Positions 60,953 to 61,656 of a stretch of DNA of 64,000 nucleotides are shown here, in pieces. Position 1 is the first letter of the stretch; each line of letters starts with the position of its first letter. Source of the DNA: Azolla caroliniana (taxonomy: Eukaryota > Plantae > Polypodiophyta); contig JBHGNT010000018.1 of NCBI GenBank assembly GCA_043228905.1, forward strand, positions 15,190,001 to 15,254,000, in the 5' to 3' direction. The translations under genes and the position numbers were made by a program. The notes below the pieces were generated by a model, which was given only the letters and a program-made list of their open reading frames with translations, did no database searches and was not told the origin of the DNA.

Positions 60953-61236
60953 GTTTCAATTCACAACAATCATGTTGAATGTGAAAACACGGATATTCTC
61001 TGTCGCTTGAGAGGAATATACGATACTCTTTACACCTGAAAGTTCGTAAAAATCTCTGGTGAGGATTGCACATGGTCGCTCACATTCGTTGGCATTCTAG
61101 TCTCCGGTGAGGACAACATATGGTTGCTCATGCCCATCAGTGCTCCAATTTCCGTCCACCCCTACACCACACTTTCGAGAAGGCGGCCGTAAAGGGGAGG
61201 ATAATGTCACGACATAGTGACATCAAATACGTAGTT

Positions 61237-61295
61237 AGTGAGGATTGAACCTGCAACCTGACATCTACAAGATGTGATGCTCAACCATTTTGATA
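61237..61295 (-). other. tRNA-like A-box/B-box module in the 3' LTR of G
   Basis: Minus strand TATCAAAATGGTTGAGCATC-ACAT-CTTGTAG-ATGT-CAGGTTGCAGGTTCAATCC has a D-loop-like GG, an anticodon-like stem-loop and a B-box. Confidence 0.62.
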
Positions 61296-61656
61296 TGGTA
61301 TGCATTTGTATATGATGGTTTAATATTGTATAGTCTCGCAGATAGTACATATCAAAATCAGAATATTCTAGTTGTTAGTATATTCTAGAAATATTGTACA
61401 ACATATTCTAGACGAGTATATTCTAGAGATATTCAATCTCGGAATATGTATAAATACGTGTAACCTCCTTGGTCACTTTCAAGGGATTCAACACCAGTCA
61501 TTGACACATCAATCTAGTATTCTCGTTTCATTCCATCTTCTCTCCTTCTTCATCGTTGTCTTCATTCTCTTGTGTCATTTCTAGCGTCTTGAGTTCCACG
61601 CTCGTAGCCCCATCGTATGTGCTTTGTCCCAGTCTGCACTTGGTGTGTCTGTGACA

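Follow-up and report, generated by a model that had tools for sequence, protein, structure and literature searches.

Three long terminal repeats (LTRs) in the window analysed in this study, a stretch of 64,000 nucleotides of Azolla caroliniana DNA, carry near their start and on the minus strand a short piece that resembles part of a tRNA gene, and the question raised by this locus is what that piece is, how it came to lie within the LTRs and what, if anything, it does there. Our analyses suggest that at least three fern LTR families have such an inverted tRNA-like piece about 40 bases in, and we tentatively read it as a TFIIIC site that would shield the promoter from silencing, a reading which we regard as possible and a little short of probable. 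The window consists of nested Ty1/copia, Ty3/gypsy and LINE pieces together with one fasciclin-domain gene (9632–10570, minus strand), which lies between long simple-repeat tracts, whose nearest named proteins are from Adiantum and Ceratopteris, and whose named relatives are all fern proteins (48–61% identity).

The 15-nucleotide sequence AGGTTRYRGGTTCRA is present in exactly three copies in the window, all on the minus strand, at 61245–61259 in the LTR of an element designated G, at 63630–63644 in LTR H and at 51586–51600 in LTR X. The initial annotation had proposed a minus-strand motif common to these three LTRs, and this is borne out by a chance expectation for the 15-mer of 0.01 copies per window (200 dinucleotide shuffles, maximum one) and by the recovery of the composite motif in none of 200 shuffles, although the motif was derived from the G, H and X sites themselves and its real test is therefore further copies outside the window. 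The spacing proved to be as tRNA-like as had been claimed: AATGG lies upstream of AGGTTRYRGGTTCRA at all three sites, the offset from G18 to T54 is 37, 37 and 36 nt (G, H and X, respectively), and the gap is that of real tRNA genes caught with the same pattern (24–25 nt). By tRNA numbering, the D-loop GG, an AGGTT variable loop and the T loop are present at the three sites, whereas the acceptor stem is absent, as the annotation had also noted, and Watson-Crick pairs form at only one or two of the five T-stem positions. The three modules are 63–73% identical in pairwise comparisons, which is more than in all 1000 shuffles, while the next 50 nt are only 53–58% identical. A profile search of the window found no module beyond these three, and an antisense GTTCRA was present within the first 130 nt of none of the 11 other LTR ends checked in the window. 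All three sites thus prove to have a genuine tRNA-like motif with tRNA spacing on the minus strand.

Some details of the annotation required correction. The LTR starts at 61205 and 63589 stand, but LTR X begins at 51517 rather than at 51534, and its B box, which had been placed at +49, is 69 nt in, compared with 40 nt in G and 41 nt in H when all are measured alike. Nor are G and H wholly dissimilar otherwise, since their U3 regions align past the module (z 9.6, 0 of 500 shuffles); judged by this shared U3 sequence, G is a non-coding relative of H.

Element G spans more than 2.3 kb (59349–61656, plus strand). Its 5′ LTR (59349–59638), by comparison with the 3′ LTR, is without about the first 170 nt and hence without the module. 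The 3′ LTR (61205–61656, TGTCAC...GTGACA) is 92% identical to 59395–59638 over 244 nt and is directly preceded by a polypurine tract (PPT, 61191–61204), the same tract being found before G-family LTRs in L022, L031 and L046. The interior (59639–61190) is non-coding, with no open reading frame of at least 150 aa, and contains 46–48-nt tandem repeats that are also present in L022, L031, L040, L046 and L047. Between two copies of a 130-nt repeat inside G lies a stretch like large-subunit rRNA (60757–60861; Rfam E 0.15, below the gathering score), which we take to be of plastid origin. The PBS (59641–59651) is a complement of the element's own LTR and not of a tRNA end, under a criterion of at least 10 nt within 0–5 nt of the LTR (PMC6317226). 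The matching 11-nt sequence AAGGGATTCAA is located at 59463–59473, approximately 30 nt below the TATA box, and is repeated at 61481–61491. As none of 5000 shuffled PBS sequences reached 11-nt complementarity, this LTR complement predicts self-priming for G, with the predicted 5′ end of its own RNA as primer. Among plant lineages, self-priming has been reported for Tcn1 and TAR, according to the parts of PMC6317226 drawn on here.

Read inward from the LTR start, the U3 has the order terminal hairpin, backwards tRNA-like module, heat shock elements, TATA box and start site. All three LTRs start with a short hairpin formed by an inverted repeat of the terminal sequence (61205–61222 in G, with a DNA fold of −4.1 kcal/mol; 63589–63602 in H; 51517–51542 in X). 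The module of G (tRNA positions 1–73) occupies 61230–61302 on the minus strand, with the B box GGTTCAATCCT at 61241–61251 and an A-box-like stretch TATCAAAATGG, in which position 10 is not G, at 61285–61295. It is followed by a TCTAGA-rich zone (61341–61440) that in the window copy is a degenerate heat-shock-element array with no perfect three-pentamer element, and by the TATA box (61449–61456), which lies in a region conserved across the family. The module thus faces outward and cannot make the element's own RNA. Contig depth from the TATA box to the start site of G (61450–61530) is far above that in the rest of the LTR, hinting at many families with the same core promoter, although contig depth is not copy number. 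Two further observations were discarded as evidence: a 5–30x contig depth over the module relative to the next U3 bins, because a private indel near 61297 clips alignments (whose loose ends match U3), and a variant-free stretch at 61277–61297, because variants close to alignment ends appear to be filtered.

LTR H (63589–64000, plus strand) lies inside a Ty1/copia coding region and runs off the window. Its module (63615–63687, minus strand; B box 63626–63636, weak A box 63670–63680) recurs in six H-family matches, and its U3 has a canonical heat shock element (HSE) array (63721–63780) with five perfect three-pentamer matches; by the definition in PMC12801592, the window contains no others. Perfect three-pentamer elements were found in the U3 of 3 of 6 H matches and at 11 of 17 G sites (one to three each), compared with neither of the two matches of a third family, K; the G and H families are therefore predicted to have a heat-responsive U3 with canonical HSEs upstream of the TATA box. 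The LTR of H is 74–77% identical to LTRs that lie behind an open chromovirus pol in L032 and L045, where reverse transcriptase (RT), RNase H, integrase, SH3_Tf2-1 and Chromo domains were identified. The H family, through L032 and L045, thus has the RT-RH-INT order and C-terminal chromodomain of chromoviruses; coding sequence was identified in this family and in neither G nor X. In both loci the pol frame crosses the PPT and ends at a stop codon no more than 8 nt into the 3′ LTR. The RT-RH of the H family is 65% identical to a Cunninghamella protein, with fungal matches at 47–59% and 65%, frog and fish matches at 54–63% and seed plant matches at 44–48%, and its chromodomain, read by eye, has aromatic residues at the cage positions. 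In an RT tree of 23 rows, without a named Tcn1, the deep nodes were open and the clade was unsettled. On this evidence the H family is likely, though not proven, to be a Tf1/Sushi (Tcn1)-like chromovirus. An integrase fragment elsewhere in the window (6848–7069), 70% identical to the H-family pol, is a remnant of another chromovirus copy.

LTR X (51517–52224, plus strand; 3′ end uncertain) starts with TGTCGTGAAG, and its first 13 nt are identical to the LTR start of element E, to which it is likely related. Its module is at 51571–51642 on the minus strand (B box 51582–51592, A-box-like stretch 51625–51635) and has a homologous module in L011; searches at X for a target site duplication (TSD), a PPT and a PBS found none. 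The X-family member L011 ends in an E-like U5 (z 6.9), and the end of X itself is weakly E-like (3 of 500 shuffles). Element E (37971–45134, minus strand) is a Ty3/gypsy element with no chromodomain match, LTRs that are 99.9% identical, open frames of 725 and 1167 aa, DUF4100 in gag and a PBS that presumably resembles the end of tRNA-Trp. Its pol is only 26% identical to that of H, and it is without the module; as its LTRs are nonetheless 99.9% identical, the module is not needed for mobility. X thus probably belongs to a Ty3/gypsy lineage other than that of G and H, and, on the evidence of the LTR ends, a second and separate acquisition of the module in its lineage is plausible. The X-family module at L011:45–115 has four of five T-stem pairs, the most of any copy, so X may stem from a younger or different tRNA or SINE capture. 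The annotation's view that one retrotransposon lineage had built a tRNA cassette into its U3 therefore holds insofar as the module is U3-built, LTR-inherited and outward-pointing, but a single lineage is probably too simple.

A scan of metagenome contigs with a pattern that fixed the B box and CCAT and allowed a B-box distance of 38–68 nt identified 45 loci: 30 LTR starts, 14 ordinary tRNA genes and one SINE-like locus. The LTR starts comprise 22 G matches (at 17 insertion sites), 6 H matches and 2 of family K, and were counted as one source, probably a different fern, as they derive from similarly named, mostly low-coverage assemblies. The metagenome G copies are approximately 71–87% identical to that in the window. 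The B box is 39–42 nt from the LTR end in 27 of the 30 LTR matches, versus 1 of the 15 non-LTR matches, and the remaining three have duplications at the LTR start; duplications of the terminal hairpin lengthen the spacer in L011, L029 and L038. The PPT lies directly before the LTR in 6 of the 30 matches, and among six solo LTRs checked, two have 5-bp TSDs around the whole LTR and one more has these with one mismatch. Profile searching added seven G copies not selected by the pattern, six of which have GGTTCAA, and a further family (L047:1174–1260) with the module at about +41, and X-type modules were seen in L011 and L038. Logan contigs under five species labels also have the module joined to an LTR start or PPT, although these represent six runs, four of them from one study, and one, X1, may be the source of the window itself. 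A scan of viral contigs gave five matches, four of which are tRNA genes, and no relative emerged from single-protein scans. Of the 95 loci recovered by alignment scans, 41 include the end of pol and at least 200 nt downstream (in about 13 of them a PPT and an LTR start are clear by eye), and the module was found in none of these 41 more distant Ty3/gypsy relatives. The fixed B-box distance, the junctions with the PPT or LTR start and the TSDs flanking the whole LTR together show that the module travels with the LTR as an inherited part of U3 and is not a later SINE insertion. In L037:579–1206 the first ~133 nt of the LTR, including the module, are duplicated in tandem inside one TSD pair. L018, L027, L038 and L050 are fold-backs with two U3 ends, the first LTR start giving way to another in inverted orientation, and these could be aberrant integration products or assembly artefacts.

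The module is no longer a tRNA gene. ARAGORN found no tRNA in the window, and the tRNA covariance check that had been suggested gave no match with the Rfam model at E≤10, either in the window or in 61195–61325. Watson-Crick pairing in the T-stem is 0.40–0.45 in the families versus 0.95 in 12 real tRNAs, that in the anticodon stem is 0–0.40 versus 0.90, and overall stem pairing of 0–0.75 versus 0.90–0.95 in the controls is short of the cloverleaf of a functional tRNA gene. The anticodon-like stem of the initial annotation (ACAT-CTTGTAG-ATGT) forms 4 of 5 pairs in the window copy of G but does not characterise the family, as only 34 of 85 positions pair across 17 G sites. No compensatory pairs were found by RNAalifold at the 19 pairs of the consensus. 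With its T and anticodon stems no longer kept and no compensatory pairs, the module appears to be conserved as DNA rather than as RNA. The A box is without G10 in every family and is poor in H, and in G and K the final B-box position is non-canonical.

Conservation was assessed in 20 G rows, leaving out same-site duplicates (L006, L018, L026, L030 and L041) and the first L037 copy and excluding columns fixed by the pattern. Identity is 0.81–0.88 across the module, and the corresponding values are 0.77 for the terminal hairpin, 0.73 for the 43 nt that follow the module, 0.81 for the HSE zone, 0.85 from the TATA box to the start site and 0.68–0.71 for R/U5; in G the module is therefore about as invariable as the TATA region and more so than U5 or the adjoining stretch of U3. 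Indels occur in 0–4 of the 20 rows within the module versus 12 of 20 just beyond it, and in three unselected G copies plus that of the window identity is 0.91 in the T-arm and 0.93 in the D-arm versus 0.64 in the next stretch. The conserved block is, however, the whole first ~95 nt of the LTR, including the trailer between the hairpin and the T arm (0.87). Between G, H and K the spacer (0.34–0.42 identical) and the anticodon arm (0.21–0.29) are near random and yet equal in length, and the U3 of K past the module is unrelated to that of G or H. These rows are related, of low coverage and probably from one plant, so that small p-values overstate the case, and because the pattern fixed the B box and CCAT, families without the motif are invisible and B-box conservation across families is partly built in. 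Taken together, the data make it fairly probable that the module is of tRNA or SINE origin and has been kept by purifying selection.

The following sequence of events would account for these findings. A tRNA copy or SINE head would have entered the U3 of a Tf1/Sushi (Tcn1)-like ancestor in a single capture, with a separate capture probably in the lineage of X. Because the 3′ U3 templates both LTRs, the module would be inherited by every new copy, and selection would preserve both the B box and the spacing between it and the LTR end. By analogy with yeast, TFIIIC would putatively bind the B box, in most cases with no productive transcription by Pol III, and would restrict how far heterochromatin spreads into the promoter from the flank. 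Such a barrier would be of use to an element with a group-I-type chromodomain, the predicted target of which is H3K9-methylated chromatin, as the group I chromodomain of MAGGY binds H3K9me (PMC3350952). The feature kept best, a B box at a set distance, matches the requirements of TFIIIC. Some TFIIIC sites are known to lack Pol III (PMC11346459), and at the S. pombe IR element B boxes contribute to a heterochromatin boundary without Pol III recruitment (PMC4502379). However, loss of the B box alone has only mild defects in S. pombe (PMC4502379) and DNA methylation impairs TFIIIC binding (PMC11346459), in the portions of these papers that we cite. Also counting against a barrier are the conservation of the whole ~95 nt and not of the boxes alone, the equal conservation of the HSE zone, the existence of element E and of 41 distant relatives without the module, and the imperfect A and B boxes. 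A more far-reaching proposal, in which chromoviruses with a portable TFIIIC boundary keep a heat-inducible promoter usable in heterochromatin and a second, unrelated Ty3/gypsy lineage acquired the same independently, is one that we consider somewhat doubtful.

The same observations can be explained in other ways. Possibly, the module is a passenger, a relic of a tRNA or SINE head in the ancestral U3 without any role, its conservation stemming from shared ancestry, constraint at the LTR end and motif-based sampling. The A boxes without G10, the lost stems, a trailer outside the boxes that is as conserved as the D-arm, the absence of the module from E and a search pattern that forced the B box are all in keeping with a relic. 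Against it, both distances have been kept between G, H and K around a spacer and anticodon arm that are near random, GGTTCAA persists in 6 of 7 unselected G copies, substitutions and indels are fewer than in the adjacent U3, and a similar module occurs in the probably separate lineage of X, so that we judge a role-less relic to be rather unlikely. Copy-by-copy insertion of independent SINEs into already integrated LTRs is a different matter and very improbable. Its appeal lies in the proposal of SINE insertion as the origin of such LTR pieces in the part of PMC10886601 drawn on here and in the differing distance and lineage of X. The module is, however, at the same position at 17 G sites with different flanks, only ~25 nt separate position 73 from the LTR end, no tail or TSD surrounds the module, and it is the LTR as a whole that TSDs enclose. 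SINEs of tRNA origin are common, and an ancestral SINE origin is possible, but for G and H insertion copy by copy is refuted, since the position is constant from one insertion site to another. The initial annotation had itself named a motif missing from relatives, a variable spacing or SINE insertions with their own TSDs as outcomes that would overturn it; what we found is that relatives have the motif, that the spacing is fixed and that no SINE tail or TSD of its own is visible.

The annotation had also raised an outward Pol III promoter, which could produce an 80–100-nt antisense RNA, with a pair of hairpins in G, whose end would lie close to the LTR terminus and which could modulate silencing of the element itself or of its flank. 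The exactly tRNA-like spacing of the A and B boxes and an AT-rich sequence upstream would favour this, as would a T4 run between the T arm and the LTR end at 11 of 17 G sites, in both K matches and in X; this terminator is missing, however, from all six H matches and from G and H in the window. The mean fold z of the antisense RNA of G (−1.35) is near that of tRNAs (−1.57), but those of H (−0.43) and K (−0.56) are weak. In G and H the AGG of the variable loop pairs with family-specific bases behind the T loop, in an alignment from which one row with wrong coordinates (L036) was left out, and changes in stem II of the G antisense RNA more often keep G-U pairing (20 of 118) than break it (3 of 79), an asymmetry that is circular, as the structure came from the same rows, and that compares six with four columns. 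Changes that break pairing reach 6–23% of depth at one stem position and compensatory pairs are lacking. With an A box without G10 in every family, an inconsistent T4 and lost tRNA stems, the idea is weakened, and we regard it as unlikely. Less likely still is a role in replication or integration, in which a protein or hairpin would be required where U3 ends in the cDNA or beside the PPT, or in which the module would serve elements that target Pol III as a landing pad. In its favour are the distance to the LTR end, which is kept better than any other feature, the hairpins with which the LTRs start, the existence of U3/U3 fold-backs (the four loci above), one foreign LTR ~139 nt into an H LTR (L049) and the cut ~170 nt into the 5′ LTR of G. 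Set against these are the absence of the module from all 41 related elements, break points (read by eye) that are scattered and may be assembly artefacts, and no pile-up of elements upstream of the three modules in the window. Of these explanations, a TFIIIC site that would protect the promoter is the one we tentatively prefer.

Comparison with known systems places the module close to several of them. The novelty suggested by the annotation holds in part: tRNA-derived Pol III boxes in LTRs have already been published for Helenus and TRIMp3 (Kojima 2024, PMC10886601), but these are miniature terminal-repeat retrotransposons (TRIMs) and the sole plant family among them is sense-oriented, as far as the portion of that paper used here extends. 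Helenus elements are TRIMs of 311–1263 bp (filter <1000 bp) proposed to be transcribed from the LTR Pol III promoter, and the same source refers to "not a few" other LTRs with tRNA-like parts, which are not described in the portion used (PMC10886601). The modules here share with Helenus the GGTTC B box and D-loop TGG at tRNA spacing, but the Helenus box A, TRGCY, is not kept. Whereas the only plant family (Helenus-1_SMo of Selaginella) is sense to its PBS and PPT, by eye and in that one family, the module here is antisense to PPT, TATA, PBS and pol and lies at the U3 edge beside a TATA box, in a protein-coding chromovirus family with open gag-pol and in the >2.3-kb non-coding G. By size, autonomy and orientation, it is not a Helenus member. 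Cassandra TRIMs likewise have a Pol III promoter in the LTRs of a plant element and occur in ferns (PMC7215508), but theirs has 5S-derived A/C boxes that drive the element's own RNA, with a tRNA-Met PBS and no autonomy (PMC7215508, PMC10886601). The Tcn1 clade (Tf1/Sushi) resembles our families in its non-seed-plant hosts, cage aromatics, an RT nearest in identity to fungal and vertebrate ones and the predicted self-priming of G, but a tRNA-like LTR module is not mentioned in the parts of PMC6317226, PMC2864245 and PMC3350952 considered here. Our searches of the open-access literature found no antisense module at the U3 edge of a chromovirus. TFIIIC boundary sites (the S. pombe IR, ETC and tRNA-gene barriers) are similar in having a B box at a domain edge with weak or absent Pol III output (PMC4502379, PMC11346459), yet they are fixed yeast chromosomal sites, with five B boxes at IR-L, whereas here there is one putative site per LTR of a mobile plant element. 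ONSEN, as G and H, has canonical HSEs in U3 upstream of the TATA box, but is Ty1/copia (PMC12801592).

If the module is a TFIIIC boundary, it would offer a testable answer to how heterochromatin-seeking chromoviruses can be expressed and a mobile candidate insulator for plants, and, if portable boundaries of this kind are real, such LTRs, in their tens of thousands, would distribute chromatin boundaries across large fern genomes. Either way, LTRs with the module can inflate relaxed tRNA or SINE annotation in ferns, since ARAGORN, with its threshold lowered, reported a tRNA across the module in 9 of the 30 LTR matches. To our knowledge, ONSEN is without a tRNA-like module, and the elements known to us to have Pol III pieces in their LTRs (Cassandra, Helenus and Ajax) are miniature ones, which these pieces are taken to transcribe. 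The module described here faces away from its element, in a protein-coding family with a normal TATA promoter, and so must do something else or nothing.
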